From positions 8,148-72,147 of the forward strand of contig JBGFSC010000033.1 in NCBI GenBank assembly GCA_041694815.1: a DNA stretch of 64,000 bases. Direction: 5' to 3'. The position numbers and the translations under genes were made by a program. Positions 313-28,118 of this stretch are shown here, one piece after another. Numbering within the stretch: position 1 is the stretch's first letter; every line of letters starts with the position of its first letter. Origin of the DNA: Elusimicrobiota bacterium. GTDB lineage: Bacteria > Elusimicrobiota > Elusimicrobia > UBA1565 > JACRDR01. A model generated the notes under the pieces. That model was not told the DNA's origin. It made no database searches and saw nothing but the letters and a program-made list of their open reading frames with translations.

Positions 313-1294
313 CCAGATGGGAGCTGTCGGCGAAAAGGCTGCGGACTACTTCCTGCACGGGGGTCTCCTCGATGGTGAGGTCCGCGACGGGAAAGCGGGA
401 GAGCAGAGCGGCGGCGCGCTTGGAAACCTCCGAGCGCGGCACCTCGATGACCGCGTGCAGCCCTCCGTTTTCGGCCACCCGGCCGATCTCCTCGAGCGCG
501 GAGGCGGGGACCGCCTCGTTGAAGTCCGCGCGGATCACCTTGACCGGGGCGTAGCGCTCCACGACCCGGCGCAGCGAGCCGTCGTATAGCAGCCGCCCCG
601 AATCGATGATCAACACGCGGGGGCAGAGCTCGACGATATCGTCCATGTTGTGGCTGGTGAGCAATACGGTGGCCTTGTTGCGCCGGTTGTATTCCAGGAC
701 GAATTGGCGCACGCGCTTCTGCATCACCACGTCGAGCCCCAGGGTCGGCTCGTCTAGCAGCAGCAATCTAGGCCGATGGAGTATGGCCACCGCCAGCTCC
801 GCCTTCATGCGCTGGCCGAGCGAGAGCTTCTTGACCGGGATCGACAGGCAGCCTTGCAGCTCGAGCAGGTCGACGAGCTCCTCGACGCTGCGCCGGTACT
901 CGGCCTCGGGGACCTCGTAGATCTTCTGATTCAGGCGGAAGGTCTCCTGCGCGGGCAATTCCCACCACAATTGGGAGCGATGCCCCATGACCAGCGAGAA
1001 CTGCTTCTGGAATTCCGATTCCCGCTTCCAGGGCACGAAGCCGAGCACGGAGGCCGTGCCGGAGCTGGGGTTGAGCAGGCCCGAGAGCATCTTGAGGGTC
1101 GTCGTCTTCCCCGCGCCGTTGGCGCCTAAAAATCCGACGAGCTCGCCTTCCTCGATCCGGAAGCTGGCGCCGACGACGGCGGGAATGTCGCGCCATTGGC
1201 GGTGCAACAGGGATTTAAAGGCGTTCCAGAGTCCGGGCCCCTTCTCCGGCACTCGAAAAGTCTTGCTGAGGTTGGAAGCCTCGACGATAGCCAC
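308..1294 (-). CDS. ABC transporter ATP-binding protein
   Basis: Walker A GANGAGKTT, ABC signature LSLGQRMK, Walker B LLLLDEPT, H-loop TSHNM. Confidence 0.9.
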   Translation of the reverse strand: MAIVEASNLSKTFRVPEKGPGLWNAFKSLLHRQWRDIPAVVGASFRIEEGELVGFLGANGAGKTTTLKMLSGLLNPSSGTASVLGFVPWKRESEFQKQFSLVMGHRSQLWWELPAQETFRLNQKIYEVPEAEYRRSVEELVDLLELQGCLSIPVKKLSLGQRMKAELAVAILHRPRLLLLDEPTLGLDVVMQKRVRQFVLEYNRRNKATVLLTSHNMDDIVELCPRVLIIDSGRLLYDGSLRRVVERYAPVKVIRADFNEAVPASALEEIGRVAENGGLHAVIEVPRSEVSKRAAALLSRFPVADLTIEETPVQEVVRSLFADSSHLA

Positions 1295-1320
1295 GCCTTA
1301 TTGTACTAAAGCTATGCGTT

Positions 1321-1818
1321 TTAAGGTTTGAATCCAATTTTCGGAGAGGGCCTTTTCTGGCCCGCCATAAGCCGCCGAATGGCACCGAAAATGTTCTGGA
1401 TGTAGATGTCATGGCCCTGCATTTTACGCTCGAGTTTCTGTAATTTTTGGGCGGACTCTTTGTGGGTAGAGATTATTTCGCGCAGTCGAATGAAGGCCCG
1501 CGCTATTTTTACGCTGGCCTCGATGGCGACCGGGGTGTGGAGAACGCTGGAAAGCATGACTGCGCCATACTCCGTAAAGACGTGCGGGAGATAACGGCGT
1601 CCTCCGCGGCCCATGTTTGAGGTTGCAAAATGCAACCTCAAAGAATCGGCCTCCTCGGGAGTCAATTGGAACATGAAGTCTTCGGGAAAGCGCTTTCAAT
1701 TGCGGCTGACTTGTTGATTAAGCCGTTTTGTCGTGACGCCGTAAAGAGCTACGAGATCAACGTCGAGCATGACTTTGTGGCTGCGAATCAAATAAATGCG
1801 GCGCTCGATTTGTTCCAT
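1321..1818 (-). pseudogene. ORF6N-domain protein interrupted by a single in-frame TGA
   Basis: N-terminal 40 codons MEQIERRIYLIRSHKVMLDVDLVALYGVTTKRLNQQVSRN (1818..1699), then TGA at 1698-1696. The same frame continues KRFPEDFMFQLTPEE...GGRRYLPHVFTEYGAVMLSSVL (track ORF 1321..1674). The joined ~165 aa matches the ORF6N family end to end. Confidence 0.65.
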
Positions 1819-1951
1819 GGGAATTATTGATTTCATTCGGGCTCCTGCTACATATATATACGAGTGAACCCCACCTTTTGTTCCCTTCTTCTGCAGAAAT
1901 TCTGCAACAAAGGCCTATTGGGGTATTAGGTCTTTAGTCTCATGCGGGGGT

Positions 1952-2644
1952 ATGAGATCCGGGGTTACTATAAGCCAGGTCATGAAAAGGCGATTTCGTC
2001 GATATGGCCTAGCGGCTCTTTTCCTATGCCAGGGCCTGGGACTTTCCGGATTTCGCCGGCCTGAATCCAGCGTGGGAAAGCCATCGAACCCGGAACCAAA
2101 ATTTCCTTTGCTTGGCGACGTCGTTGACCTGGATGCAGTCACAGAGGAGCTGTTAGGAGAGTTGGATAAGTTGCGAACTTCGACGAGTCCGTCGCCGTTA
2201 GGCGTTATGGATCCTCGTGATCTAATTGACCCGGCGTTAGGCGGGCGCTTGGCAAGGTCGATTCAATTCCGTTTGCCTGGGCCGGCCGAAGCGGAACGTC
2301 TTTTGCGGTATTATGTACGCAAGAAACGTATATCACTGGACATCGATGTTGATTTGCGGGCGGTGGCCTCCGAGGCTCAGGGTTTATCCTCTGCTCAACT
2401 AAAACAGCTAGTCGATGAGGCAGGCTCACAGATGGCGTGTCGGTGGGCGTCTTCAGTGAATGCGGATGATTTCCGTGAAGCATTGGAGGTGTTGCAAATG
2501 GGGCCGGTCCAAGCTGAGGAAGCGAGGAGAAGAAGAAGGGAAGAAGCAATGAATGAGCTGGCAGAGCGTTTCCGCCATCAGGCGACCGCCTTGCCTGGCG
2601 AAGGAATCGAAACCGCTGTAGAGCGATTTAGGTTGCAGTGGTAA
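1952..2644 (+). CDS. exported degenerate AAA+ domain protein (sensor and lid regions kept, no Walker A); probable start 1982
   Basis: MKRRFRRYGLAALFLCQGLGLSG is signal-peptide-like. DLIDPALGGRLARSIQFRLPGPAEAERLL resembles the AAA second region of homology. DVDLRAVASEAQGLSSAQLKQLVDEAG is a lid-like helix. No GxxGxGKT motif. C-terminal tail ...TAVERFRLQW. Confidence 0.5.
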   Translation: MRSGVTISQVMKRRFRRYGLAALFLCQGLGLSGFRRPESSVGKPSNPEPKFPLLGDVVDLDAVTEELLGELDKLRTSTSPSPLGVMDPRDLIDPALGGRLARSIQFRLPGPAEAERLLRYYVRKKRISLDIDVDLRAVASEAQGLSSAQLKQLVDEAGSQMACRWASSVNADDFREALEVLQMGPVQAEEARRRRREEAMNELAERFRHQATALPGEGIETAVERFRLQW

Positions 2645-3369
2645 CTGTTCCTAAAGTTGAGAATGCGTGGAAAGTGGATGCCTGGCACCCAATGAATCGC
2701 CTGGGGCGATCCGTTCGTCTTTTGATCTTTTTGTCGAGCGCGTTGACGCCGGCCTCCGCCATCGGGCCTCGTGGTCCGGGGACGCCGCCGCCAACGTCTT
2801 CGGATCCCGCAAAAACCCGGTTAGCGGATTTGCTAGCCAAGCTGCGAGGAACAGGAAACAAAATTTGTGCAGCAACAATATTACTCACGGGTGTAGAGGA
2901 TAGAGATCGAGACGACATACTTTCTTTGTTGGATCCGATGCCGATAGTTGTAGTTCATCCCGATGGGCTCCGTGCGAACTATGTCGGAGGAGCCTCCCAG
3001 CGTCTTAATGAGGTGTTCAGCCAGGTGACGGCTAAGCACGACGGAGGAGCTTTGTATCTTGATGATTTTGATGAATTTAATAAGGACCCGGTATTAAGGT
3101 CGCAAACGATAATGGGCATAGATACGGCGGTCGCGCTGAGCAAACTAAAGGGATTTCCGGTATTGATATTTGCGCAGACCAATTGGCCGGAGCGCCTAGA
3201 CCCTGCTTTGCGTCGCCGCTTCGCGTACGTGATCAACTGGCGAGCGGACGAACTTCTTCGTGATAAGCAGATTAAGAGGCTGCAAGAACTCCTGGCCGAT
3301 CAGGCTTCGCCGGTCTCTGCTTGGGCGGATGCCGAGACTGCGGAGCGGCGCTTCAAGCTGCCTTGGTAG
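2638..3369 (+). CDS. exported P-loop-less AAA+-like protein; probable start 2692
   Basis: MNRLGRSVRLLIFLSSALTPASA is signal-peptide-like. ILLTGVEDRDRDD sits where GPPGTGKT would be. LYLDDFDEF is Walker-B-like. VLIFAQTNWPERLDPALRRRF matches the sensor-1/arginine-finger region. C-terminal tail ...ETAERRFKLPW. Confidence 0.5.
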   Translation: MVTVPKVENAWKVDAWHPMNRLGRSVRLLIFLSSALTPASAIGPRGPGTPPPTSSDPAKTRLADLLAKLRGTGNKICAATILLTGVEDRDRDDILSLLDPMPIVVVHPDGLRANYVGGASQRLNEVFSQVTAKHDGGALYLDDFDEFNKDPVLRSQTIMGIDTAVALSKLKGFPVLIFAQTNWPERLDPALRRRFAYVINWRADELLRDKQIKRLQELLADQASPVSAWADAETAERRFKLPW

Positions 3370-3407
3370 TTGCTTCCCCGGGCTTATTTTGATAATATAA
3401 CGTTTCC

Positions 3408-3719
3408 ATGTACGCGATCATCGAGACGGGCGGCAAGCAGTTCTGGGTCACCCCCGGCGAGGTCATCCGGGTCGAGAAACTCGAGGCCAAGGAAGGCTCG
3501 GAGCTTAAGCTCAAGGCCCTCTGGGCCGCGGGCGAGCCCGGGCAGGGCGGCGACTCCAAGAAGCTGCCCTCCGCCGAGGTAACGGTGCAGGTCGTCAAGC
3601 AGCTGCGCGCGCCCAAGGTCATCGTCTTCAAGAAGCGAACCAAGAAGGCCTACCAGAAGACCCAGGGCCATCGCCAGGACCTGACCGAGATACGCATCAA
3701 AGAAATTTCCCTGAATTAA
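3408..3719 (+). CDS. rplU: 50S ribosomal protein L21
   Basis: MYAIIETGGKQFWVTPGEVIRVEKL is a typical L21 N-terminus. Sits directly upstream of L27. Confidence 0.9.
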   Translation: MYAIIETGGKQFWVTPGEVIRVEKLEAKEGSELKLKALWAAGEPGQGGDSKKLPSAEVTVQVVKQLRAPKVIVFKKRTKKAYQKTQGHRQDLTEIRIKEISLN

Positions 3720-3731
3720 CCGGATTTATTT

Positions 3732-4010
3732 ATGGCACATACAAAAGCGCAGGGCTCTTCCTCAAACGGACGCGACAGCCATGGGCAGCGCCTGGGCGTC
3801 AAGCGCTACGGCGGCCAATTCGTCCTGGCCGGCTCGGTGCTGGTCCGCCAGCGTGGCACCAAGTTCCTTCCGGGGCTCAACGTGGGCCGCGGCAAGGACG
3901 ACACCCTCTTCGCCAAAGCCTCGGGTGTGGTGACATTCCAGTGGGCCAAGAAGGACAAGAAGCGCCTGAGCGTCATCCCTTCCGGCAACGGCGCCGCGAA
4001 CGGCCAGTAA
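3732..4010 (+). CDS. rpmA: 50S ribosomal protein L27
   Basis: [31 protein letters not shown] is the canonical L27 N-terminus. Confidence 0.9.
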
Positions 4011-4037
4011 GACTCCGTTTTCCTCGAGGACCGGCGA

Positions 4038-5354
4038 GTGACAAACTTCGTCGATAAAGTCCGCATTTTTGCCAAGGGCGGGCAGGGGGGAGACGGCTGC
4101 CTTTCCTTCCGTCGGGAGAAATACGTAGAATTCGGTGGACCCGACGGCGGAGACGGCGGGCGGGGCGGCGACGTCTACCTCGTCGCCGACCGTAATCTTG
4201 GCACCCTGCTGGATTTTACCCGTCGGCCCCATCTCGAGGCTTTATCCGGAGAAAACGGCAAGGGCGCCAATAAGACGGGGCGGGGGGCAGACGATCTTAT
4301 CGTCTCGGTCCCGATCGGGACGATGGTCTACAAAAGGGACCAATTGCTCGCGGATCTAGTCGAAGAGGGCCAGAGGGTGCTCGTCGCCAAGGGCGGCCGC
4401 GGCGGCCGAGGTAACCTGTCATTCAAGAGCCAGCGCAACACCGCTCCCCGCATCGCCGAGAAGGGCGAGCCCGGCGAGCAGGCCGTCGTCGACCTGGAGC
4501 TCAAGCTCATCGCCGACGTGGGCCTGACCGGGCTGCCCAACGCGGGCAAGTCGACGCTGCTGGCCAGGCTCAGCCGCGCGCGCCCCAAGATCGCGGATTA
4601 CCCGTTCACCACCCTGGCGCCGCATTTAGGCGTCGTCGAGCATAAGCGCTCGAGCTTCATCATGGCCGACATCCCGGGGCTCATCGAGGGGGCGCATCGC
4701 GGCAAGGGCTTGGGTGACGCCTTCCTGCGCCATATCGAGCGCACGCGCCTGCTGGTTCACTTGGTCGATCCGTTGGGCTACGGCGGCAAAAGCGCCGAGG
4801 ATGGGGTGCGCGTCATCGAGGCGGAGCTTAAGTCTTTTTCCGCGAGGCTGGCGAAGAAGCCGCGCGTTCTGGTGGTCAACAAGATGGATCTGCCCGAGGG
4901 CCCCGTCGTGCTGCGCCGATTGCGCGGCCGCTACAGAACCCGTCCCGTCTTCGGCATCTCCTGCGCCTCGGGGCAGGGGGTCTCCGAGCTCGCCGACCGG
5001 CTCGCCGAGGAGCTCGCCCGCCTGCCTCGGGAGGGCGAGGGGGCGGCCCGGCCGGCCGGGCCCGAGAAGCTCCTGGTTAGCCCCGGCTTCGAGATCCGGC
5101 GGAGGCAGGGGGGCTTCGAGGTCTCGGGAGCCTACGTCGAGCGGATCGTGCGCATGGCCGACCTGTCGCTGCCCGAATCGGTCGCGCGGCTGCAGCTGGC
5201 CCTGCGGAAGGTCGGGGTCGACCGTGCGCTTCGTAAGGCCGGCATCCAGAACGGCGACGTCGTTCGCGTGGCGGGGCACGAATTCGAGTGGTCGGACGCC
5301 CCCTTCGCCCCACCGCCCCGCATCCCCCGTACCCGGCGCACCCGCATCCAATGA
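4038..5354 (+). CDS. obg: GTPase Obg/CgtA
   Basis: Obg fold N-terminal domain [27 protein letters not shown]...[13 protein letters not shown]-domain motifs [22 protein letters not shown]. Conserved rplU-rpmA-obg order. Confidence 0.9.
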
Positions 5355-6232
5355 ACACGCTGCGGGAGTACGAGGCGCGGATACAGGACGTGGGAGGCAT
5401 CGACGGCGCCGTCTTGTTCTGCGAGCGCCTGGCCTCCCGCCACTACGAGAATTTCCCCGTCGCCTCCAGGCTGCTGCCGCGGCACACCCGGCGCCACGTG
5501 GCCGTGCTCTACGCCTTCGCGCGCATCGCCGACGATTTCTCCGACGAGGCCGAGTACGAGGGCGTGCGCCGCCAGCGCCTGGAGGACTGGCGCAGGCAGC
5601 TGTGGGCTATCGGCAAGGAGCCGCCCCGGCATCCGGTGTTCCTGGCCATGGAGGAGAGCCTCCGGCAGCTCGACCTGCCCCGCGAGCCCTTCGACGACCT
5701 GCTGAGCGCGTTCCTGCAGGATGTCGACAAGCGCCGCTACGCCAGCTTCGATGAGGTGGCCGATTATTGCCGGCGCTCCGCTAATCCCGTGGGCCGGATC
5801 GTGCTCATGATACACGGCTACCGCGATCCGGAGCTCTTCAAGCTCTCCGACGCCATCTGCACCGGGCTGCAGCTCGCCAATTTCTGGCAGGACGTGTCCG
5901 TCGATCTGAAAAAGGACCGCATCTACATCCCGGAGGAGGATTTCCGCCACTTCGGCTACGGCGAGGCGGACCTTCGCATGGGAGTCGTCAACGAGCGCTT
6001 CCGCAACCTCATGAAGCACCAGTGGAAGCGCACCCGGGCCCTCTTCGAGACCGGCCGGCACCTGTGGCCGAGGCTCCGGTTCCCGCTCTCCTGGGAGATC
6101 AAGCTGACCTGGCTGGGGGGAAACCAGGTGCTTCATAAGATACGCCGCGCCGGTTTCGACACGCTGCACCAGCGCCCAGCCCTGACGAAATGGGATTGGA
6201 TGAAGCTGCTGTTGTTCGGGTGGGCGGCGTGA
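5351..6232 (+). CDS. hpnC: squalene/phytoene-synthase-family enzyme, HpnC-like (hydroxysqualene synthase)
   Basis: YENFPVASRLLP, AFARIADDFSDE and YIPEEDF motifs. Precedes an HpnD-like and an HpnE-like gene. Confidence 0.7.
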   Translation: MNTLREYEARIQDVGGIDGAVLFCERLASRHYENFPVASRLLPRHTRRHVAVLYAFARIADDFSDEAEYEGVRRQRLEDWRRQLWAIGKEPPRHPVFLAMEESLRQLDLPREPFDDLLSAFLQDVDKRRYASFDEVADYCRRSANPVGRIVLMIHGYRDPELFKLSDAICTGLQLANFWQDVSVDLKKDRIYIPEEDFRHFGYGEADLRMGVVNERFRNLMKHQWKRTRALFETGRHLWPRLRFPLSWEIKLTWLGGNQVLHKIRRAGFDTLHQRPALTKWDWMKLLLFGWAA

Positions 6233-7077
6233 CGGGCGGGGAGGCGGCGGCCCGGCGCTCGAGCTTCTACGTGGGGTTCCTGTTTTTGCCCTCCGAGAAG
6301 CGCCGCGCGCTCACCGAGGTCTACGGCTTCTGCCGGATGATCGACGACATCGTCGATTCGGGAGAGCTCACCCGTGTTGAAGCCGAGAAGAGGCTTGAGT
6401 TCTGGCGCGAGGAGATCGCGCGGCTCTACGAGGGCAGGCCGGGCCATCCCGTGTCCCAGGCGCTCGCCTACCCCGTCGAGCGCTTCGCCCTGCCGCGGCA
6501 GGCCTTCCTGGACCTCATCGGCGGCTGCGCGATGGACTTGGAGCGCCGCCGCTACGAGGATTTCAAGGAGCTGGAGGCCTATCTCTACGGCGTCGCCGTC
6601 ACGGTGGGGCTTCTCTGCGTCGAGATTTTCGGCTACCGTCACAGCGACGCGGCGCGCGTTCGGGAATACGCGACGCACCTGGGCTACGCCTTCCAGCTCA
6701 CCAATATCCTGCGCGACGTGGGCGCCGATCTCGAGATGGGGCGGATCTACCTGCCCCTCTCGGAAATGCGCGCGGCAGGCTACTGCGTCGAGGAGCTCCA
6801 TAGCCGCCAGCATAACAAGGCCTTCGTGGCGCTCATGGAGGCGCAGTATGCGCGCGCCAAGGGCTATTACGCCCGCGCGCGGACCCTGCTGGACCCGCGC
6901 GATCGCGCGGGGATGCTCGCCGCCGAGCTCATGGCCCGTCATTATGAAGGGGTGCTCGACGAGATACGCCGGCGGCAGTACAGGGTCTTCTTCGAGCGGA
7001 TCGGCTTGAGCCCCTGGCAGAAGCTGCGTTTGGCCGCGGCCGGCTGCGCCTACAGCTATGGGCTTGTGACACCATAA
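6190..7077 (+). CDS. hpnD: presqualene diphosphate synthase HpnD-like
   Basis: SSFYVGFLFLPSEKRRALTEVYGFCRMIDDIVDS, YAFQLTNILRDVGADLEMGRIYLP. Second squalene-synthase-family paralog in the hpnC-D-E order. Confidence 0.7.
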   Translation: MGLDEAAVVRVGGVTGGEAAARRSSFYVGFLFLPSEKRRALTEVYGFCRMIDDIVDSGELTRVEAEKRLEFWREEIARLYEGRPGHPVSQALAYPVERFALPRQAFLDLIGGCAMDLERRRYEDFKELEAYLYGVAVTVGLLCVEIFGYRHSDAARVREYATHLGYAFQLTNILRDVGADLEMGRIYLPLSEMRAAGYCVEELHSRQHNKAFVALMEAQYARAKGYYARARTLLDPRDRAGMLAAELMARHYEGVLDEIRRRQYRVFFERIGLSPWQKLRLAAAGCAYSYGLVTP

Positions 7078-7329
7078 TATGGACGATCTGGAGGCCCGAG
7101 CTTGAGACGATTTCGAGGCGCGACGAGGGAGCATAGCCGTAGGCTATGTGACCGAGGAGCAACGATGAAATCGGCCAAGCTCGGGCCTCCCCGCAGGGGC
7201 CGGGCGATTTTGGGCTGCGCCAGCGTCGCTCGTCGCTCACATACCGCTGCGGGTATGCTCGCTCCTCGCTCCTTGGCTCGCTCCAAAATCGCCTCGGCCA
7301 GATCGTCCATATTATGGTGTCACAAGCCC
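7060..7329. repeat. intergenic element bounded by a perfect 32-bp inverted repeat (gggcttgtgacaccataatatggacgatctgg), with internal hairpins
   Basis: Left arm 7060-7091, right arm 7298-7329 as exact reverse complement. Inner palindromes catagccgtaggctatg and cataccgctgcgggtatg. Overlaps the hpnD stop and ends 2 nt before the hpnE ATG. Confidence 0.7.
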
Positions 7330-7330
7330 T

Positions 7331-8680
7331 ATGGCCTTCTCTGACGTCGTCGTCCTGGGCGGCGGCTTCGCCGGCCTCGCCTGCGCGAGCGCGCTGGCCG
7401 AGCGCGGCGCGCGCGTGACCTTGCTCGAGAAGAAGCCCCATCTGGGCGGGCGCGCCTATTCCTTCAGGGAGCCCGGGACAGGCGCCGTCATCGACAACGG
7501 ACAGCATCTGTTCATGGGCTGCTACGGCGAGACGAAGGCCTTCCTGGGCCGCGTCGGCTCGGCTTCCTTGTTGCGTTTCTCCCGGGGGACTCGCGTCGAC
7601 TACCGCGACGGCATGGGCCGGCGCGACGCGCTGTCGTGCCCCGCGGCGCTGCCGGCGCCCTGGCATCTGGCCTTCGGCGTGCTCGGGCTCGCGGGGCTGT
7701 CCTTGCTCGACAAATGGAATCTCCGGAAGCTCAAGACCTTCTTCGATGAGGGCGGCAGGGACCGCTCCGCCGAGCTCGATGCCATGACGGCGCGGCAATG
7801 GTTGAGTTCCGTCGGCCAGTCGCCGCGGGCCCAAGAGAGGCTCTTTGACCCCATCGCCATCGGAGCCTTGAACGAGTCGCCGGAGCGCGCCTCGGCGCTG
7901 GGCCTGGCCCAGGTGCTCGAGCGCCTCTTCTTCCGCGACGCCGAGGATTCCCGGCTCGGCCTCGCGTCCGTTGGCCTAAGCGAGCTCTATACCGAGCAGG
8001 CGCGGCGATTCATCGAGTCCCGCGGCGGCCGCGTCGTGCTCGGCAAGAAGGCCGCCGCCTTGGAAAGCGAGGGCGGCAGGATTTCCGCGGTGAGAACCTT
8101 ATCCGGAGAGCGCATCGCGGCCGATGCGTTCGTCTCGACCCTGCCGCCGTGGGCATTGGACAAGCTCGAGCGGCCCCTTGAGCTTCACGGGGAGTGGTCG
8201 GGACTTAAGCCCTCGCCGATCATCGGCATTAATCTGTGGCTTGATCGGGCCGTGCTGGAGGAGCCCTTGATCGGGCTCCTGGGAACCTCGATCCATTGGA
8301 TTTTCAACAAGAACGCGCTCTGGGGGCTCCGCACGCAAGAGCAATATCTGTCGCTGGTCATCAGCGGAGCCCATGATTTCCTCGGCGCCCCGCCCGCCTC
8401 CTTGCTGGAATTGGCCAAGCGGGATCTGGAGCGCTGCTTGCCCGATTTTAAAAAAGCTAACATAAGCCGATGGTACGTGGTCAAGGAGCCCTTCGCGACG
8501 CTGTCTCCGGTTTGCGGCTCCGACCGGCTGCGGCCGCGCCACGAGTCGCCGCTGCCGAACTTTTTTTACGGCGGGGATTGGACGCAGACCGGGCTTCCGG
8601 CGACCATCGAGAGCGCGGTGCAAAGCGGCCACGCCTGCGCGCGGCTGATAGGGAGGGGAGTCCATGATCAAGTCCGATAA
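7331..8680 (+). CDS. hpnE: FAD-dependent hydroxysqualene dehydroxylase HpnE-like (amine-oxidase family)
   Basis: [40 protein letters not shown] dinucleotide-binding motif. Sits directly downstream of hpnD. Confidence 0.7.
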
Positions 8681-9233
8681 GTGGATACGGAAAATGTCGC
8701 TGCAGCATAAGATGATCGACCCCTTCGTTGAAAAGCTGCAGGCCAACGGCCAGATTTCCTACGGGCTCTCCTCGTATGGCTACGATATCCGCGTCACCGA
8801 CCAATTCAAGATCTTCACCAACGTGCTGGGGGCCGTCGTCGACCCCAAGAATTTCGACGAGAAGTCCTTCGTTGATTTCAGAGGCCCTTTCTGCATGGTC
8901 CCGCCCAACTCCTTCGCACTCGCCCACTCCTTCGAATATTTCCGCATCCCGCGCAACGTGCTAGGGATATGCATTGGCAAGAGCACCTACGCCCGGTGCG
9001 GCATCGTCGTCAACATTACCCCGTTGGAGGCCGAGTGGGAGGGGCACCTGACGATCGAGATATCCAACACGACGCCCCTGCCGGCCAAGATCTATTCGAA
9101 TGAAGGGATCGCGCAACTCATCTTCCTGGAGTCCGACGAGGTCTGCGAGACCTCGTATAAAGACCGCAAGGGCAAGTACCAGGCCCAGCAAGGCATCACC
9201 CTGCCGCGCATCCTGAGCGCTTCGGCGTCGTAA
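8664..9233 (+). CDS. dcd: dCTP deaminase
   Basis: [31 protein letters not shown] and [15 protein letters not shown] motifs. Confidence 0.85.
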
Positions 9234-9482
9234 AAAGCGGTAACTTTCGCCTGCAAACGCGGCTTCGGCCTGTTCCCCAGCGCCGCTACTTGAGGCGTAC
9301 CTTTTAGTAGCCGCGTTCGTCGCTCTTTGATTCGTCTCGAAATCCGTATTTTTGCGTTCGAACCGTGTTTTTGAACGGCTTCTAGAAAAATATCCACCTT
9401 ATTGCAAAAACCATTTATAACAATTGCGTTTTTTGCGCCAACTCCGTCTGAAAAGAGTTGGAGCGAAAAGACTTTATAGAAC

Positions 9483-10427
9483 ATGCGCTTTTTTACCCAA
9501 TGTGGATATTTTTCGAGTCGGGACGGAACTTATTCGTGGCTCGATCGTATATATAGTATGGCGATGATCGAGTTAGACGGCGAGCGATTGCTCGCCGAAT
9601 GCGACACGAAGAAAGATGCCGAACTGTTTGCCAGGCTGGAGCGCTTTCGAGGAGAAGAGTCCGAGTCGCTCGCGCAGACATTGGCATGTTTGGCGACGTT
9701 GGATAGACGCAAGGCGGCTGATGAGCTTGCGGACGGTTCTCTGTTTCTCTATTGCACTCGGAAACTCGGTTATTCCGAGGCAGAAGCCTATATGAGAATC
9801 CGGGTGGCGCGAGCCGCCAACGACTTTCCGCGGATTCTAACGATGATCGGTCGCGGGCAGATCCATGTCAGCGCGGTCGCCCGGATAGCGCCTTATCTGG
9901 ATTCCGAAAATTATAGGAGCCTGCTGGGCAAGGCCAGTCGGCGAAGCCGCGAGGAACTCGATCGGCTGATTGCGGAATTAGAGCCGCAGATAGAGAGGCG
10001 ACCGGTCATTCGCTCTCTATCCGTGGGGAATAATGCTCGCGCTCCGATTGTCACAGCGGAATCGCTCTTCGAACCGCCTTCGCCGCAGCTTCACTCTTCT
10101 TTCTCGCAGTCGGCATCGGGAAGGGAAAATAAAATCGAGATGAAGATCGAGCCCTGGCTGCCGACGGCCGTGCCTGATAACGCCGGCGCGTGTTCCGTTC
10201 GCCCGCCTGCCGGCCGGGTTTTATTTAGCTTCGTCGGCAGCGAGGCCTTTCGGGCTAAATACAAGCGGGCGAAGGAAATATTGCTTCATAAATATCCCGA
10301 TGGAAGTCCAGAGAAGATATTCGATGACGCGTTGGAAGCGCTGTTGGACAAAAAAGATCCTTGGCGCCGATTGGCGAGGAAAGAAAGGCGCCGGGCGATG
10401 GCAGGCTCTGAGGTGGATTCTTCATAG
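9483..10427 (+). CDS. DUF222-like (13E12-repeat) domain protein with no detectable HNH nuclease domain
   Basis: ARLERFRGEESESLAQTLACLATLDRRKAADELADGS...RIRVARAANDFPRILTMIGRGQIHVSAVARIAPYL resembles the N-terminal domain of DUF222/HNH proteins. AT-rich DNA on both sides. Confidence 0.4.
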   Translation: MRFFTQCGYFSSRDGTYSWLDRIYSMAMIELDGERLLAECDTKKDAELFARLERFRGEESESLAQTLACLATLDRRKAADELADGSLFLYCTRKLGYSEAEAYMRIRVARAANDFPRILTMIGRGQIHVSAVARIAPYLDSENYRSLLGKASRRSREELDRLIAELEPQIERRPVIRSLSVGNNARAPIVTAESLFEPPSPQLHSSFSQSASGRENKIEMKIEPWLPTAVPDNAGACSVRPPAGRVLFSFVGSEAFRAKYKRAKEILLHKYPDGSPEKIFDDALEALLDKKDPWRRLARKERRRAMAGSEVDSS

Positions 10428-10577
10428 CTCTGGTGCATGGGCCCGCTTCCAAATACGATAAACGCTTGCGCAGTGACATCATAGGACCTTAGGCCTATTT
10501 CCAGGAGTCCTAAAAAACCACGTATTAAGGCCCTAAAGGCTCAGGCGGCTTAGCCGTTTGGCGCGTACACTTTACCA

Positions 10578-11285
10578 ATGCGTTTGCCGTGGATTCTCTG
10601 CTGTTTGCTCGCCGTCGCACCGTCTCTGGCGGCCGAAACCGTCGAGTCGATCAAGGCCGGCTCCGGCGTTGACTTCGGAGAAGGAGCGACGGCGGTTGGC
10701 CTGACGGGAAATCCCTCGAATTCCTCTTTCGGGTCTCAATTCGCCGCCCTATTTAAGCTCGGCCAAGCCAGGAGGCAGACGCCTGGAGTTAGGCGCAGGG
10801 GGCCGATCATCGTCAAGGAGCCGGCGCCTCCGCCGTTTCCGAAAAATCACGATTATTGCTGGCCAAGCGCCTTGGACCGCGCGGCGGGTTTCGTGATCGG
10901 AGTTGTTTTTCCGACGGTGCTTCTAACCGCCTTGAGTTTTGCCTCGGGCATCGGCTTGGGGACCGGCTTAGAGAGTGCTACCAGCATGGCCGGCTTCCTA
11001 TTGCCCCGACTCGCGGGAGTCCTCTACGGGGTCACTACGGTGATGGCATGGGCTCATATAGTGAATTGGATGCTCCGTCAGACATGGATTCAATGGCCGA
11101 AAGGCCGCGCGAAACCGGTGGATCCCATGGCGATCGTAATGGCGTTCGCCCTAGGATTCTTTTCTCCTCCGCTGGCCGGATTGATCATCGGCTGGAGTAT
11201 GGGCCGGCATTGGGCGGCGTTCCTATCCCAGAGACTGGGCTGCGCGGTTGAGAAACTTCTCTATCGAATATGGTATCGCCTATGA
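10578..11285 (+). CDS. signal-peptide/multi-pass membrane protein, paralog A of a five-member family (divergent)
   Basis: SP MRLPWILCCLLAVAPSLAAE, then ETVESIKAGSGVDFGEGA, PIIVKEPAPPPFPKNHDYCW, then 3-4 predicted TM helices. Same architecture as paralogs B-E. Confidence 0.5.
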   Translation: MRLPWILCCLLAVAPSLAAETVESIKAGSGVDFGEGATAVGLTGNPSNSSFGSQFAALFKLGQARRQTPGVRRRGPIIVKEPAPPPFPKNHDYCWPSALDRAAGFVIGVVFPTVLLTALSFASGIGLGTGLESATSMAGFLLPRLAGVLYGVTTVMAWAHIVNWMLRQTWIQWPKGRAKPVDPMAIVMAFALGFFSPPLAGLIIGWSMGRHWAAFLSQRLGCAVEKLLYRIWYRL

Positions 11286-12415
11286 AACCGATTTTATTGG
11301 CTCTTGCCCTGGCCCTCGCCGCCGACGCGCCGGCCTCGGCCGGCGAAAGCGAGGAGCTCAAGGCGGCTCTCGAGGAGACCCGGGGCCTGCTGGACATGAA
11401 CAAGCCCCGCCGGGAATTCGAGCGCCATAGCGGCGATATGCGTTCGGTGGCCTTTTCCTCCGACGGCTCCATGATCCTCTCTGCCAGCCACGGCAACGTG
11501 TTCCTCTGGGGGGTCGACGACCTGGAGTTTATCACTAAATTTGAGCCGCCGAACGAATACGGTGGCTTCCACGGGGCCCAGCTCAGTCCGAAAGATGAAA
11601 CGCGAATCCTTACCGCTAGCACGAACTGGGTCATCCTGTGGCGGTGGAACCAGGAGGAAGGCGCGCTCGAGCGGGTCAAGAAACTCGACGTTGGGGGAGA
11701 CGGCGCCGAGATCGCGATCTACAGCACCGATGGCTCTCGCATCGTCACGGCTCACGGCAAGAGCGCTATCGTATGGGACGCCGATGGTAACAAGTTGGCC
11801 CTCATCGAGGCGCCGGGCGACATCCATTCGGTTTCGATCAACCCGGAAGGCTCGAGATTGGTCACGGTGCATCGGGACGGGTCGGCCAGCGTGTGGGAAG
11901 TCGGAGTCCTGAAAAAGAAGCTTCTCCTGTTTGATGTGATTGGTGGGAAAAGGCTTCTGGACCTTCCCAAAGGCAATCGGCGGGGAGCCGCGCTTTTTAG
12001 CCCCGATGGTTCCAAGTTCCTGACCCTCGGCGGAGATTTCAGGCTGCGGGATGCGTCGAACTGGCAAGATTTGGGGATTTTCAAGCCAGAACAGGGGGTG
12101 TTTTCGACGGCGGCGTTCAGCCGGGACGGCTCGCGAATTGCGGCCGCTAACGATAAGGAAACGGTGGTATTCAACGCCAGGACGGGTGAGATCGTCAAGG
12201 TGCTGCCGCCCGCCCTTTGCGTGGGATTTAGCCCGGAGGGTACTTATCTGGCGACCGGAGGGATCGATCGCGTGGTTCGAGTTTGGAAGATAGCCTTCTC
12301 GTCGCAGGAGCTCAAGGCCGTGGAGCATCGTCTAAAGAATAAGGCGAACGCCGCCGATCCTGAAAAGGCGAAGGACGAGATCCAGACGGCCGAGGAGCGC
12401 TTTAGGCTTGATTAG
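11270..12415 (+). CDS. exported WD40 beta-propeller protein 1, ends ...TAEERFRLD
   Basis: SP MKPILLALALALAADAPASA. WD40 blades, e.g. SVAFSSDGSMILSASHGNVFLWGVDD, VSINPEGSRLVTVHRDGSASVWEV, VGFSPEGTYLATGGIDRVVRVWKI. Overlaps both flanking paralog genes. Confidence 0.7.
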   Translation: MVSPMKPILLALALALAADAPASAGESEELKAALEETRGLLDMNKPRREFERHSGDMRSVAFSSDGSMILSASHGNVFLWGVDDLEFITKFEPPNEYGGFHGAQLSPKDETRILTASTNWVILWRWNQEEGALERVKKLDVGGDGAEIAIYSTDGSRIVTAHGKSAIVWDADGNKLALIEAPGDIHSVSINPEGSRLVTVHRDGSASVWEVGVLKKKLLLFDVIGGKRLLDLPKGNRRGAALFSPDGSKFLTLGGDFRLRDASNWQDLGIFKPEQGVFSTAAFSRDGSRIAAANDKETVVFNARTGEIVKVLPPALCVGFSPEGTYLATGGIDRVVRVWKIAFSSQELKAVEHRLKNKANAADPEKAKDEIQTAEERFRLD

Positions 12416-13010
12416 GGTCCTAGCGGCAGCTTTGGTATTGTCTTATTTTTGCGTGCCAGCCGGCGCCGGCGAGCTGGAGGAGGCCAAGCAGGAGTCCGGG
12501 ATCGAGTTCGGCGAGGCGGGGGCCGCCGCTTCGGTCCTAAGTCCGATCCCCGCGCGCGCCCCGGGCCCGATCGCGGGCCTGATGCATTTGGTTCAGAAGG
12601 CCAGGCGCGGAGGCCCGCCGGCGCCCATCGTCGTTTCCGAACCCATCAATCATAAGAATTGTTTGTGCAAAAACAGCGCGGACGAAGAATTTCTAGGTTA
12701 TATAGTCGCTCTCTTGCCCCTAGCCGCCGGGATTCTCGTAATGATCGTTTTTGGAGACCCATTTTTTGGCGGCGTGGCACGCGCCGCGATTCCCCAAATG
12801 ATTCTGGCGCGACTTGCCGCATCCGCGCTTGTCACCGCCTGGTTTTGTCGCTTGCGGAGTCCTATAAAATTCGATTGGTTAACGGGCACCACTCTCGGGC
12901 TCATCGCTGTGACGACGGCGGTTTTTCCGCCTATTGGCGGAGCTTTCCTGAGCTACTTATTGGTTGGGGATCTAATTAGGTGGTTCCATCATTTCCTGCG
13001 CCGAGAATGA
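12408..13010 (+). CDS. signal-peptide/multi-pass membrane protein, paralog B
   Basis: SP, GELEEAKQESGIEFGE, PIVVSEPINHKNC, 3-4 TM helices, C-terminal WFHHFLRRE. Confidence 0.6.
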   Translation: MIRVLAAALVLSYFCVPAGAGELEEAKQESGIEFGEAGAAASVLSPIPARAPGPIAGLMHLVQKARRGGPPAPIVVSEPINHKNCLCKNSADEEFLGYIVALLPLAAGILVMIVFGDPFFGGVARAAIPQMILARLAASALVTAWFCRLRSPIKFDWLTGTTLGLIAVTTAVFPPIGGAFLSYLLVGDLIRWFHHFLRRE

Positions 13011-13597
13011 AGACCTCTATTTTCTTGACCTTAATCGTTCTGGTGGCTTCGGGTCAGCGAGAGAGGCTTTTCGCCGGCCAAGCCGAGGCGATAAGGCATG
13101 AGTCGGGAATTTTTTTCGGGGAAGGCATGTCCGTGCCCTCCTCGGTCGCGGCGGAGGACAGGCGGATCGGCCCCTCCGCCCTGCTGTTCGCCTTCCAAAA
13201 AAAGAAAGCCGGGCCGAGAGGGCCCATCGTAGTGAAGGAACCGATCAATCACAAGGTTTGTTCTCCAAATCGGCGCGAGCAATTGGCCGGAGCGGTGGCT
13301 GGAATTATCGTCCCGACCCTTGCGGTCTTGGGAATGGAACTCGCTTGGGCCTTTAGTGGTGTTTCCTCACCCATGACTTTCCTGGCGCCGCGGGCCATCG
13401 GCATGGCGCTGGCCGGAGTTTTGGCCTTGGCCTGGGGCCGGTCTCGTAAAACCAGTCTTTCCGAGAATGCGATGTTTTCGACCATGGCGGCCGCCACGGG
13501 CTTTATATCCCCGTCCGCCGGCATATTCGTGTTAGGGATGGTCTTTACGAGCCAGGTCTTGGCCTCCTGGTTCCACCGCCGTCTTCATCTCTTATGA
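13007..13597 (+). CDS. signal-peptide/multi-pass membrane protein, paralog C
   Basis: SP MKTSIFLTLIVLVASG, AEAIRHESGIFFGE, PIVVKEPINHKVC, TM helices, C-terminal WFHRRLHLL. Confidence 0.6.
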   Translation: MKTSIFLTLIVLVASGQRERLFAGQAEAIRHESGIFFGEGMSVPSSVAAEDRRIGPSALLFAFQKKKAGPRGPIVVKEPINHKVCSPNRREQLAGAVAGIIVPTLAVLGMELAWAFSGVSSPMTFLAPRAIGMALAGVLALAWGRSRKTSLSENAMFSTMAAATGFISPSAGIFVLGMVFTSQVLASWFHRRLHLL

Positions 13598-14151
13598 AGA
13601 ACTCAGCTTTCAGATACGTATTCCTTGGCCTCGCCTTCGCGGCGGGCGTACTGCACGCCGGGTCCCTCGAGGAGGCCAAGGATGGGTCGGGAAGCGTGTT
13701 CGGGGAGTCCGCTGGCTCTTCGGCCTCCGCCCCGCCCGCGCGGCTAGGGATTACCGATAAGGTCCGACCGCTCGTAGCCAGACTTTACCGGCCCCGTAGG
13801 GAGCCGATCATCGTCAAGGAACCGCCCAATCATCGGCTCTGCTTTCCAGATAATAAGGACGCTAAAATCGCGACCTGGATCGCCGTCATCCTGCCCGCGA
13901 CGGCCATTACGGTGCTGGCCGCCACCTCGGCCTTGGGGCTGTCGCCCATTTCCTTCGCAGTGCCGGGCGCCATCGGCGCGGGACTGACCATCATCGGCCT
14001 AATTAGGGCTGACATGTTTAGGCCCAGCTGGAAGGCGATCGCCGTCGCCGCCGCCTTGGGTTTCTTCTTGCCGGCTATTCCGGTGCTTTTCTGGGGCGCC
14101 GGCTTATGGGATGGCGCCGTGTCCTGGATTCATCGGCTGAGGCATCGATGA
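13594..14151 (+). CDS. signal-peptide/multi-pass membrane protein, paralog D
   Basis: SP, GSLEEAKDGSGSVFGE, PIIVKEPPNHRLC, TM helices, C-terminal WIHRLRHR. Confidence 0.6.
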   Translation: MKNSAFRYVFLGLAFAAGVLHAGSLEEAKDGSGSVFGESAGSSASAPPARLGITDKVRPLVARLYRPRREPIIVKEPPNHRLCFPDNKDAKIATWIAVILPATAITVLAATSALGLSPISFAVPGAIGAGLTIIGLIRADMFRPSWKAIAVAAALGFFLPAIPVLFWGAGLWDGAVSWIHRLRHR

Positions 14152-15262
14152 ATATCCTCTTTATGGCCGCAGCCGTGCTCGCGGCCTCGTTGCCCGGCCG
14201 CGCCTTCGCCCAGGCTCGAGGCATACTCGCGGAGCGCAAGGCCTTTCTCGAGGAGATCGAAGCGCAGCGGCCCACCGAGCCGACGCTGACCCACACCCTG
14301 CAGGCTTCGGGACCCATCGCGTTTAACGGAGACGGTTCCCTGGCGCTTATCGGCTCGACCTTGTTCGACGCCAGGAGCTGGAAGGTGGCCGGATATTTGG
14401 ACGGCCATAAGCAGGCGGTGACCGCCGCGGCCGTTTCCCAGGACGGCAGGATCGCGGCGACGGCGAGCTGGCACAGCCGGGACAAGACGGCGATCCTATG
14501 GGAGCTTCCCTCCGGCCGCCAGGCTCGCGCGATCAAGGGGCCTTCGGCCATACTCTCGCTCGCCTTGAGCCCCGACGGTTCGCGGCTCGTCACGGGACAT
14601 CATAATAAAAGCGCGATCATCTGGGATGTCGCCACCGGCAAGAGGGTGCTCGAACTCATAGGGAATGAGAATACGGTCTACGCCGTGGCGTACAGCCCCA
14701 GCGGAGAAAAGATCGCCACGGCGGGGGCGGATGAAAAAATCCATATCTGGGACGCCAAGACTGGAAAACGGACGCATTGGGCCGAGGGTAGCCTTGGCGC
14801 GATCATCTCCTTGGCGTTTACTCCAAACGGCGATAAGATCATCAGCGGTTCCGATAAAGGGATGGTGGAAGCCACGCCCGTCAACGGCGGTCGAGGATGG
14901 AAACCTCTCTTTAAGAACGTCGGCAAACCGTATTCAATCGCCGTCAGCCCTAATGGGAAAAAAATCGTGGCGGCCGGCACGATACCCAGGCTGTTTGATG
15001 AGGTGAGCGAACGGTTCTCCTTTTTCGAGCTGACGGCCTCCCGGTCGAAGGGGACTTCTTTTCCGTCGCGTTTTCTCCCGGGGGTTATGAAATATTGATC
15101 TCCGGGCTCGATGGGATCACCAGGGTATGGTCCATCGCTATGTCGCCCGAAAGGATACGGGAGAAGCTCAAGGAGTTCGACGAGCGCCTCAGGCAATCCG
15201 CGGCCATCCAAGCCGCCAACGGAGAAGCCATCGACGCCGAGGAGAGGTTCAAATTATGGTAG
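14106..15262 (+). CDS. exported WD40 beta-propeller protein 2 with an apparent frameshift (possible pseudogene or homopolymer error); ends ...DAEERFKLW
   Basis: Track ORF 14106..15098 has SP plus WD40 blades (VTAAAVSQDGRIAATAS, LSLALSPDGSRLVTGHHNKSAIIWDV, VYAVAYSPSGEKIATAGADEKIHIWDA). The last blade FFSVAFSPGGYEILISGLDGITRVWSI...AEERFKLW* reads only in another frame, open from about 15004 to 15262. The shift lies near a T5 run around 15025-15040. Confidence 0.55.
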
Positions 15263-15843
15263 CGCGCCTATGCCTCGCCTTCATTCTATATTTGCCCGTC
15301 ATGTCGCGGGCCGGGGAGACGGAAAAGCTCAAGCAGGAGTCCGGTATTCTATTTGGAGAGAGTCGGCAAAACACCGGTGCCGTGTCGTTCTTTAGGCTGC
15401 CGGGACGCAAGGCCGGACCCGCGGCGGCGAACGCCGCGGCGCCCAAGGCCATGCCGCCCAATATCATCCCTCCGCCGCGATTTAACAGGTATGACGTTCC
15501 TACCTGGGAAATTTTAGCAAGCTTCTTGGTGACGGTCGCCCTGCCTTTGGCGGCCGCCGGGGCGGCTCAGCTGGGCATTCAGGCGAGCATACAGGCGAGC
15601 GCAGGGCTTCCTTTGATCGGCTGGCGCGTGTTGGGCGGCTTGGCATGCGGCATTTGGGCGCTCGCCTGCGGTTGGGCCAATCCGAAGCAAAGGATGAATA
15701 AATGGGTTTTCGGCGCCTTGATGGCGGGGCTCGGGAGTTTTTTGCCGGGCGGCGCCGCTTTTTTGCTATCTGCCGTCTCCATGAACCAATTGCTCGGCCC
15801 GGTCGCCTCATGGATACACAGCGCCCTTAAGCGAGAGCCGTGA
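15256..15843 (+). CDS. signal-peptide/multi-pass membrane protein, paralog E
   Basis: SP MVARLCLAFILYLPVMSRAG, ETEKLKQESGILFGE, Pro-rich linker, TM helices, C-terminal WIHSALKREP. Its ATG overlaps the TGG-TAG end of WD40 protein 2. Confidence 0.6.
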   Translation: MVARLCLAFILYLPVMSRAGETEKLKQESGILFGESRQNTGAVSFFRLPGRKAGPAAANAAAPKAMPPNIIPPPRFNRYDVPTWEILASFLVTVALPLAAAGAAQLGIQASIQASAGLPLIGWRVLGGLACGIWALACGWANPKQRMNKWVFGALMAGLGSFLPGGAAFLLSAVSMNQLLGPVASWIHSALKREP

Positions 15844-15892
15844 CCCGGTTCGCGTTTACATCCCGTACATAATTTAGTACCATTCTTCAGTC

Positions 15893-16327
15893 ATGCCGCA
15901 GGGGACTTTCGTCGCCGATTCCAAGCTCGCCCAGCAGAACCGCCGCTGGCATGTCATTGACGCCGATGGGCAGGTGCTGGGCCGGCTCGCCAGCCGCGCC
16001 GCGGTGCTGCTTAAGGGAAAGCACAAGCGCTTTTTCAGCCCGGCGGTGGACTGTGGGGATTTCGTGGTGGTGACCAACGCCGCCAAGATCCGTCTCACCG
16101 GCAACAAGCTCAACCAGAAATTTTACTTCTCGCATTCGGGCTATGCCTCCGGCGCCAAGACGACCCCCCTTAAGCTGCAGATGGAGCGCGATCCCCGCAA
16201 GGTCGTCTACCTGGCGGTCAAGCGCATGCTCGACTCCAACCGCCTCCGCTCGCCGCAATTGAGGCGGCTGCGCGTCTATAAGGGCGATAAGCATCCCCAC
16301 CCGCTCCCCGAGGCCGCGCGTGGCTAA
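15893..16327 (+). CDS. rplM: 50S ribosomal protein L13
   Basis: RRWHVIDADGQVLGRLASRAAVLLKGKHK and FYFSHSGY are L13 signatures. Directly upstream of S9. Confidence 0.9.
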   Translation: MPQGTFVADSKLAQQNRRWHVIDADGQVLGRLASRAAVLLKGKHKRFFSPAVDCGDFVVVTNAAKIRLTGNKLNQKFYFSHSGYASGAKTTPLKLQMERDPRKVVYLAVKRMLDSNRLRSPQLRRLRVYKGDKHPHPLPEAARG

Positions 16328-16721
16328 GAACGGGGACTGGGTACTGGCCACGGGCCGCCGGAAGACCTCCATCGCCCAGGTCAAGCTGCTACGGCAGGGA
16401 GACGGCAAGGTGACGGTCAATTCCAAGCCCTTGGACCAGTATTTCCACGGCCGGGACCGCCAGGTGCAGGACGTGCTCTCGCCCTTGAAGGCCGAGGGCG
16501 CCGGCGGCTACAACGTGTCGGTGAAGGTCTTCGGCGGCGGCGTCAACGGGCAGGCCGGGGCCATCCGGCACGGCATCGCCCGGGCCTTGGCCAAAATCGA
16601 CGAGAAGCTCAAGAAGGCGATGCGCCTTCAGGGATTTCTGACCCGCGACGACCGCATGGTCGAGCGCAAGAAGTCGGGCCAGCCGAAAGCGCGCAAGCGC
16701 TTCCAGTACTCCAAGCGTTAG
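16320..16721 (+). CDS. rpsI: 30S ribosomal protein S9
   Basis: GGGVNGQAGAIRHGIARAL and C-terminal KARKRFQYSKR. Confidence 0.9.
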   Translation: MAKNGDWVLATGRRKTSIAQVKLLRQGDGKVTVNSKPLDQYFHGRDRQVQDVLSPLKAEGAGGYNVSVKVFGGGVNGQAGAIRHGIARALAKIDEKLKKAMRLQGFLTRDDRMVERKKSGQPKARKRFQYSKR

Positions 16722-25995: not shown

Positions 25996-26005
25996 GGAGG
26001 AGAAC

Positions 26006-26305: not shown

Positions 26306-26371
26306 CCGTCGTGGGATTAAAACGAATAGGCCCCCTCGGCTACTCGCCTCCCCGTGGGGGAGGCGAGTGAC

Positions 26372-28110: not shown

Positions 28111-28118
28111 GAGGAAGC

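Follow-up and report, generated by a model that had tools for sequence, protein, structure and literature searches.

Four exported proteins, two unrelated folds and one C-terminal tail private to an uncultured Elusimicrobiota genome

Can a short peptide at the extreme C-terminus be shared by exported proteins of unrelated folds and, if so, what might it do there? This question is raised by a 64,000-nucleotide stretch of an Elusimicrobiota bacterium genome (GenBank assembly GCA_041694815.1, contig JBGFSC010000033.1, positions 8,148 to 72,147), which we refer to as the window, where two AAA-derived proteins (ORF1 and ORF2, for open reading frames) and two WD40 propellers (WD40-1 and WD40-2) end alike. 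The same 8–12-residue C-terminal tail is real on these four exported proteins of two unrelated folds, with the consensus T-A-[EV]-[ER]-R-F-[KR]-L-x(0-1)-[WD]-COOH following a variable helical spacer of ~30 residues, and it is a real, selected, previously undescribed and private feature of one uncultured genome.

All four peptides were found by open reading frame (ORF) listing and direct translation where an earlier note, made from the sequence alone, had placed them, the fourth only in the –1 frame relative to its gene. ORF1 (1982–2644, + strand, alternative start 1952; P0011, 220 amino acids) ends ...TAVERFRLQW before the stop at 2644 (longer form GIETAVERFRLQW), its tail module spanning 2516–2641 (+ strand) and the terminal motif 2612–2641. 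ORF2 (2692–3369, + strand, alternative GTG start 2638) ends ...TAERRFKLPW before the stop at 3369 (longer form DAETAERRFKLPW), with the tail module at 3241–3366 (+ strand) and the terminal motif at 3337–3366. WD40-1 (11282–12415, + strand, alternative start 11270) ends IQTAEERFRLD before the stop at 12415, the module with the end QTAEERFRLD lying at 12287–12412 (+ strand), and the fourth tail, AIDAEERFKLW, is followed by the stop at 15262. Translation confirms the earlier count of three tails in four ending in Trp, the exception being WD40-1 with Asp. The N-terminal signal peptides that had been assigned to all four proteins are plausible by direct reading (a basic n-region, a hydrophobic stretch of 9–17 residues, and ASA or AFA sites), and an amphipathic helix directly follows the signal peptide in each protein.

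Could these endings be alike by chance, or only because frames that do not code were read? In favour of this are the shortness of the motif, the need for a frameshift in one carrier and the atypically low GC content at third codon positions (GC3) of ORF1 and ORF2 (0.52–0.56). In the six-frame translation of the window, however, [ER]RF[KR]L is found at the four tail sites only, each 1–2 residues before the stop, and a looser pattern ([hydrophobic][KR][hydrophobic]x0-2[WFYD] at the terminus) applied to open frames of at least 70 codons returned the same four only; the comparison of C-terminal with internal positions suggested in the earlier note therefore gives four of four occurrences at C-termini and none internally. 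The background is low, as the core motif appears 15 times in 1.23 Mb from 80 other genomes, always internally or in short open frames and never ending a long one. When profiles were built with one tail left out and searched against 22,445 six-frame segments, the omitted tail was always the best non-member (E-values of 1.2e-3, 1.9e-4, 0.021 and 0.089). Between families, the profile of the AAA-pair tails had WD40-1 (E 9e-4) and WD40-2 (E 7e-3) as its best outside hits, and in the reverse search with the WD40-pair profile ORF2 ranked first but weakly (E 0.7). All four open frames also have independent domain matches. Chance is effectively refuted by the six-frame, background, leave-one-out and cross-family searches.

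We then ask whether it is the peptide or the underlying DNA that is conserved. Over the eight motif codons synonymous sites are saturated (pooled pS 0.96) compared with a pN of 0.21, and nucleotide identity between the tails is only 54–71%, with Thr encoded by ACC, ACT or ACG, Arg by CGA, CGC, CGC and AGG, and Leu by TTG, CTG, CTT and TTA. No DNA repeat over the tails was seen with a repeat finder. As the synonymous codons are scrambled and no DNA repeat is present, the conserved object is the peptide, and judging from its codons the tail is under purifying selection as such. A DNA-level repeat or recombination site was rejected as the cause on the same three grounds.

The codons of the WD40 tails do bear on a rival explanation, in which the tail, itself doing little or nothing, is a relic inherited after recombination had copied a 3'-terminal segment from one island gene to another. 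In the WD40 genes it would persist mainly because it supplies the overlapping downstream gene with its Shine-Dalgarno sequence, AT-rich spacer and start codon. The A-E-E-R codons of WD40-1 hold GAGGAG 10 nucleotides upstream of the TTG start at 12408 of membrane paralog B, and those of WD40-2 hold GAGGAGAGG 8 nucleotides upstream of the ATG start at 15256 of membrane paralog E (both described below). These starts sit within the last tail codons, with the ATG of paralog E inside the Leu-Trp codons TTA TGG, and the F, K and L codons are AT-rich as expected of an initiation-region spacer; that only two independent lineages carry the tail, and that everything is private to one genome, would also suit a relic. 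The overlap with start regions cannot explain the ORF1 and ORF2 tails, though, as these keep the full peptide motif without GAGGAG and no gene overlaps ORF2 downstream (rplU begins 39 nucleotides after the ORF2 stop). Such overlap as the sole cause is ruled out for ORF1 and ORF2, and it would be a partial contributor for the WD40 genes. Amino acids have moreover been kept despite saturated synonymous sites, which inertia without selection on the peptide cannot give, and pairs of tails from different families are as similar as those within a family (ORF1 and WD40-1 share seven of the eight residues). Taken together, we regard a relic as fairly unlikely.

How unrelated are the carriers, and how many independent cases do they represent? 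The folds proposed in the earlier note hold in scans of family libraries, with both AAA fragments degenerate and both WD40 matches strong. ORF1 comprises the end of an AAA core plus lid, with no P-loop domain (AAA_lid_3 E 4e-4; C-terminal part of FtsH/PAN E 4e-12), and ORF2 an AAA core without Walker A and without a lid (PF00004 profile positions 25–128 only; IteA-like E 1.8e-6) which reads ILLTGVEDRD at the expected P-loop position. On these alignments, the two proteins are AAA-derived and not functional AAA+ ATPases. The classical-clade AAA+ fragments over 1982–3369 stand in the order lid (ORF1), then core (ORF2). We note that exported AAA-derived domains are unusual in themselves. The tail is the only similarity between ORF1 and ORF2 found by BLASTP (33% over 36 residues), and direct reading indicates that a basic signal peptide, a linker rich in Pro and a similar first helix are common to both. 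The simplest history would be a single ancestral exported AAA-like gene with the tail, followed by duplication and reciprocal trimming to give ORF1 and ORF2. WD40-1 and WD40-2 match the WD40 beta-propeller family (PF00400 E 2e-24 and 1.7e-29, respectively) and are divergent paralogs, ~36% identical over aligned columns. With the tail of each pair shared by descent, there are two independent occurrences (AAA-derived and WD40) and not four, and the sharing across folds is essentially one event. The earlier description of four proteins with unrelated folds is thus right in that two unrelated folds carry the tail, but the WD40 proteins are paralogous and the AAA pair are apparently the reciprocal deletion products of one ancestor.

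The claim that the tail ends the second WD40 protein needs a similar adjustment, as the peptide is present at 15262 but the frame of the gene as sequenced stops at 15098 (...FLPGVMKY). The frame-0 part of WD40-2 (14148–15098, + strand, alternative start 14106) encodes the signal peptide and most of the propeller, and the –1-frame part (15002–15262, + strand) the last blade and the tail module (15134–15259) with the end DAEERFKLW; in the public gene call the last 55 amino acids are a separate ORF (P0008). The tail joins the propeller only via a 1-nucleotide frameshift, and both frames are open only over 15002–15095, where nothing resembles a slippery site except a weak C_TTT_TTC (15020–15026). 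WD40-2 may be a pseudogene, may reflect a misassembly or may use programmed frameshifting.

Where the tail sits relative to the folds was examined in AlphaFold2 (AF2) models. WD40-1, modelled from a 55-row alignment, has seven four-stranded blades with a mean predicted local distance difference test score (pLDDT) of 79.5, a helix at residues 24–36 after the signal peptide and a C-terminal helix-turn-helix (341–355 and 360–376); the pLDDT of the tail is ~70 and falls to <50 over the last four residues. The ORF1 model is poor overall (53), with a confident long helix at 175–203 (pLDDT 73–85), a short helix at 209–216 over IETAVERF, and a pLDDT of ~55 beyond the long helix. In these models the tail appears as an appendage exposed on a spacer, outside either fold. 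That it is a module outside either fold had been suggested earlier, and this agrees with the tail being the sole BLASTP similarity between ORF1 and ORF2 and with its absence from generic WD40 relatives. Similarity across folds is concentrated in the last ~12 columns, with the preceding helix not significantly shared between the families, and on this pattern of conservation the tail would be a short peptide on a spacer and not a folded domain or homotypic bundle. A homotypic helical-hairpin bundle, prompted by the modelled helix-turn-helix, is disfavoured by the lack of conservation of the first helix across the two families. The idea that the tail is a spare WD-repeat strand (T-I-K-L-W-D-like) is also unsupported, at least in cis, given that the WD40-1 model has seven complete blades and a helical tail.

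For the last 12 residues the strand-type hydrophobic moment (0.44–0.66) is larger than the helix-type moment (0.24–0.43), so that binding as a strand is also conceivable for the terminal F-x-L-x-W. This would fit beta-augmentation by a periplasmic PDZ or tail-specific protease of the DegS/DegP/Prc/Ctp type, for which the tail might be a ligand acting as a degron or stress-sensing signal, and the proteins are indeed exported with a free carboxy terminus, three of the four tails end in Trp, and W, L and F occupy positions –1, –3 and –5 in ORF1 and ORF2. We nevertheless consider a protease ligand unlikely. WD40-1 ends in Asp and WD40-2, with F-K-L-W, is one position out of register; 3–5 residues suffice for a PDZ ligand whereas here conservation reaches the upstream T-A-E-E-R; a housekeeping protease would not explain a tail found on island proteins only; and the window proteins scanned, a small part of the genome, included no PDZ protein.

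General sorting and quality-control signals mark many proteins in many genomes, and the earlier note had suggested that the tail might be one of them. A profile of the 42-residue tail module searched against 1.84 billion protein representatives matched its own four proteins and one repetitive coiled-coil protein only. In searches of 5.8 billion clusters, ORF2 found only itself and the profile of the membrane paralogs only the paralogs themselves, and the relatives of WD40-1 were generic WD40 proteins only (24–32% identity), none with the tail. The motif pattern gave 62 raw matches compared with ~70 expected in 185,579 species genomes (596 Gb; a collection which does not include this genome itself), 86 in metagenomes and 58 in viral contigs, and none of these were confirmed; similarly, the N-terminal motif of the paralogs had only chance-level matches in the metagenome and viral collections, none confirmed. 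No model in Pfam, NCBIfam or PADLOC explains the tail or the paralogs. The pattern and profile searches of relatives proposed in the earlier note have therefore produced no confirmed carrier elsewhere. As the tail was confirmed in no searched sequence other than its own four proteins, it looks like the private tag of a gene set and not a general sorting signal, which of all the readings fits the distribution data worst.

Two other leads from these searches were rejected. For membership of a defence system, the AAA fragments gave no more than weak, partial matches to IetA/IteA ATPases and the other genes gave nothing. A match of the tail profile to residues 1–30 of the E. coli-type ribosomal protein S10 (E 0.0015, PDB) was judged to be chance, as the score of the profile was only 6 bits for S10 of B. 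subtilis and –2 bits for that of T. thermophilus.

The same distribution bears on a more specialised possibility, in which the tail would direct secretion or sorting: a dedicated machine would recognise it and, as a second transport step, move the proteins across the outer membrane or insert them into it. The C-terminal position on Sec-exported proteins of unrelated folds would suit this, and an acidic stretch followed by hydrophobic residues resembles some C-terminal secretion signals; the Dot/Icm E-block signals, for example, have an acidic stretch and then hydrophobic residues near the terminus. We consider it very unlikely, however, with four carriers only and none confirmed in other genomes, no transmembrane (TM) helix or basic cluster and hence nothing sortase- or exosortase-like, and no NCBIfam or Pfam match to a CTERM or C-terminal domain (CTD) model. 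Neither the islands nor the window proteins scanned yielded a candidate sorting enzyme.

What, then, surrounds the four carriers? They lie in two islands. Island 1, just upstream of rplU, contains ORF1, ORF2 and a truncated ORF6N-domain gene (1321–1674, – strand; PF10543 E 3e-8, profile positions 45–86 only) of a family typical of mobile elements. Island 2 is inserted in the dcd–rplM interval, occupies 6.66 kb (9234–15892) and contains a weak DUF222-like gene followed by seven tightly overlapping genes, parA-WD1-parB-parC-parD-WD2-parE, in which WD1 and WD2 are the WD40 genes. The DUF222-like gene (9483–10427, + strand; PF02720 E 0.018, with no HNH domain detected and a GC3 of 0.60) is possibly a mobile-element remnant. 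The five membrane paralogs are all on the + strand: A (10578–11285), B (12408–13010, its start overlapping the WD40-1 tail by 8 nucleotides), C (13007–13597, with a 4-nucleotide overlap with B), D (13594–14151, with 4-nucleotide overlaps with C and WD40-2) and E (15256–15843, its ATG within the WD40-2 tail codons). Each has a signal peptide, a periplasmic N-terminal part of ~75 residues and about three TM helices, and they share the periplasmic motif [EG]SG[ISV]xFGE, PI[IV]VKEPxNH preceded by a basic patch and, C-terminally, W[FI]Hxx[LR] (paralog A reads GSGVDFGE and PIIVKEP). The first of these motifs loosely recalls the TolB-box DGSGW, a peptide which binds a periplasmic propeller.

The lower GC of the tail genes, as first described in the earlier note, is borne out by a GC3 of 0.52–0.75 in the island genes compared with 0.83–0.88 in the flanking core genes. 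The Obg sequence assigns the genome to Elusimicrobiota. We compared both sites with those of Elusimicrobia metagenome-assembled genomes from lake water and groundwater (best Obg matches of 72, 68, 65 and 60%), where the conserved order is rplU-rpmA-obg-hpnC-hpnD-hpnE-dcd-(one exported gene of 0.6–1.2 kb)-rplM-rpsI. ORF1, ORF2 and the truncated ORF6N gene have no counterpart in these loci. The low GC3 and the differences from relatives make both sites look lineage-specific and probably acquired DNA. It should be noted that the exported gene found between dcd and rplM in the relatives (4452–5150 in L010, 14929–16146 in L002, 14952–15596 in L006 and 13560–14246 in L016) has the conserved sequence ...WEPEDxxLLxxMxEAERLRAFD...FFxxKGTDAKWVF... 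and is missing here, the window having the 6.66-kb island at this position instead. Promoter and terminator scans of 1200–16500 were at or below shuffle expectation.

We infer, tentatively and as the best of the explanations considered though it falls short of probable, that the tail is a short docking peptide tethering the exported proteins to a common and probably island-encoded receptor to form one envelope complex. A single receptor would bind the motif, and the soluble periplasmic proteins encoded by the islands would assemble there. One candidate receptor is the peptide-binding face of the WD40 propellers, and the other is the periplasmic N-terminal part of the five 3-TM paralogs with their ESGIxFGE and basic-patch-PIIVKEP motifs; the two AAA-derived fragments would be recruited into the same complex through the same tail. 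The overlaps of 4–8 nucleotides between the seven genes from parA to parE suggest one operon and a stoichiometric complex. Docking is also consistent with the occurrence of the motif solely at the extreme C-terminus in the window, with selection on the peptide and its conservation mainly over the last ~12 residues, with the exposure of the appendage and its AF2 helices of moderate to low confidence, with signal-peptide-like N-termini on all the putative partners, which would place them in the same compartment, and with the fact that the two islands encode both the proteins with the tail and the candidate receptors. An exported WD40 propeller acting as a protein–protein scaffold is known from Rv3035-FecB of M. 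tuberculosis (PMC13041763).

Several observations weigh against docking. ORF1 and ORF2 lie ~7 kb from the paralogs and the WD40 genes and are adjacent to no paralog, and the last residue of WD40-1 is Asp instead of Trp. As WD40-2 is frameshifted it may be a pseudogene, which weakens the case for a working complex. The motif codons of the WD40 genes double as the ribosome-binding site and start codon of the downstream genes, so some of the constraint may be on DNA, and orthologs of the tail carriers or paralogs were not found in the protein, genome and metagenome searches. A more elaborate form of docking, in which the peptide T-A-E-E-R-F-[KR]-L-x-W is the address label or 'plug' of an unseen, lineage-restricted Elusimicrobiota envelope system, seems doubtful to us. 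Here the peptide would slot into either a WD40 propeller in the periplasm or the periplasmic domain of the small 3-TM proteins, and the catalytically dead AAA-derived domains and propellers would assemble into a membrane-anchored periplasmic complex.

If docking were true, the tail would be a clean natural case of a short terminal peptide moved between unrelated folds and wiring exported proteins together, and signal-peptide-bearing AAA-derived domains and WD40 propellers would act in the bacterial periplasm; a plug would in addition be a bacterial periplasmic counterpart of eukaryotic docking between short linear motifs and WD40 proteins. The reach of either is limited, because the tail and its putative partners are orphans known from a single uncultured Elusimicrobiota genome, with one carrier frameshifted, and no generalisation follows. 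The value of the tail is as a well-defined target, and it opens no long-standing question.

Other features of the window were noted in passing. A perfect 32-nucleotide inverted repeat (7060–7091 and 7298–7329) flanks 206 nucleotides between hpnD and hpnE, a gap of 2 nucleotides in the relative L010, and 7060–7329 looks like an insertion resembling a miniature inverted-repeat transposable element that overlaps the 3' end of hpnD. A cyclic-di-GMP-I riboswitch (49147–49224, 56.9 bits) lies upstream of a HEAT-repeat gene (49964–50737), after which a giant open frame of >4,420 codons runs from 50739 beyond the last base of the window and weakly matches a choice-of-anchor-Z repeat; this is probably a cyclic-di-GMP-controlled surface protein. 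By direct reading only, 25357–29400 is a bacterial microcompartment (BMC)-like cluster with BMC shell-type small proteins, an EutN-like protein, a 477-amino acid dehydrogenase-sized gene and an RpiB-like protein. Finally, 36382–39395 has an LPP20-like lipoprotein, a 346-amino acid gene without a family match and a CsgG-family lipoprotein in a row, and resembles a CsgG-type secretion or assembly locus.

How does the tail compare with known systems? The earlier note did not recognise it as a described sorting motif, and this stands in that the tail has no NCBIfam or Pfam match and departs from the sortase-type, type IX secretion system (T9SS) CTD and HbYX signals. LPXTG, PEP-CTERM, GlyGly-CTERM and T9SS CTD signals are likewise C-terminal tags on exported proteins of many folds. 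In contrast to the sortase, exosortase and rhombosortase signals, the tails here are charged and hydrophilic, end 0–2 residues after the motif and have no hydrophobic segment or basic cluster. No curated CTERM or sorting model was found for the four proteins (NCBIfam, E up to 1), and the isolated tails gave only noise in Pfam. Sortase-type signals also occur on many carriers in many genomes compared with four in one genome here, where no sorting enzyme was seen among the window proteins scanned. The T9SS CTD is a beta-sandwich of 70–100 residues, whereas the region shared here is 10–40 residues long, predicted to be helical and without a model match. For the beta-signal, which the earlier note did not recognise here either, the match is partial at best. 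The Y-x-F/beta-signal of outer-membrane proteins (read by the DegS PDZ domain and BAM) is similar in having a terminal aromatic residue on exported proteins, and ORF1 and ORF2 fit it with W, L and F at –1, –3 and –5; WD40-2 is one register off, WD40-1 ends in Asp, and the carriers are soluble WD40- and AAA-type proteins and not beta-barrels, with a charged and predicted helical upstream region.

Docking peptides provide further parallels. The docking domains of polyketide synthases and nonribosomal peptide synthetases are short helical terminal appendages which set subunit pairing, and all four proteins here have the amphipathic helix after the signal peptide, but there is no sequence similarity or megasynthase context and our proteins are periplasmic. 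The EEVD-COOH of Hsp70 and Hsp90 is an acidic terminal peptide found across folds and read with its free carboxylate by one adaptor family, the tetratricopeptide repeat (TPR) clamp; its sequence and compartment are different, and the small TPR protein of the window (41861–42259) is unlinked to the islands. The Ile-Arg (IR) tails of the anaphase-promoting complex/cyclosome (APC/C) are carried by the WD40 propellers of Cdc20 and Cdh1 and by another fold, Apc10, for one scaffold, and all four tails here contain R-F-[KR]-L, which has the form of the D-box RxxL bound by the Cdc20 and Cdh1 propellers, a purely formal likeness; the APC/C is eukaryotic and cytoplasmic, and its receptor is a TPR protein. 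The HbYX motif of the PAN/Rpt AAA+ ATPases and Blm10/PA200 is also a tiny free C-terminal motif used across unrelated folds to dock with one receptor, and one of our carrier families is AAA-derived, with ORF1 aligning to the C-terminal part of PAN. The last three residues here are LQW, LPW, KLW and RLD and not hydrophobic-Tyr-X, and the carriers are exported, without a working ATPase or a proteasome-like receptor, making this an analogy and not homology. By analogy, then, the tail would work most like the HbYX, APC/C IR or EEVD tails while being a member of none of these.

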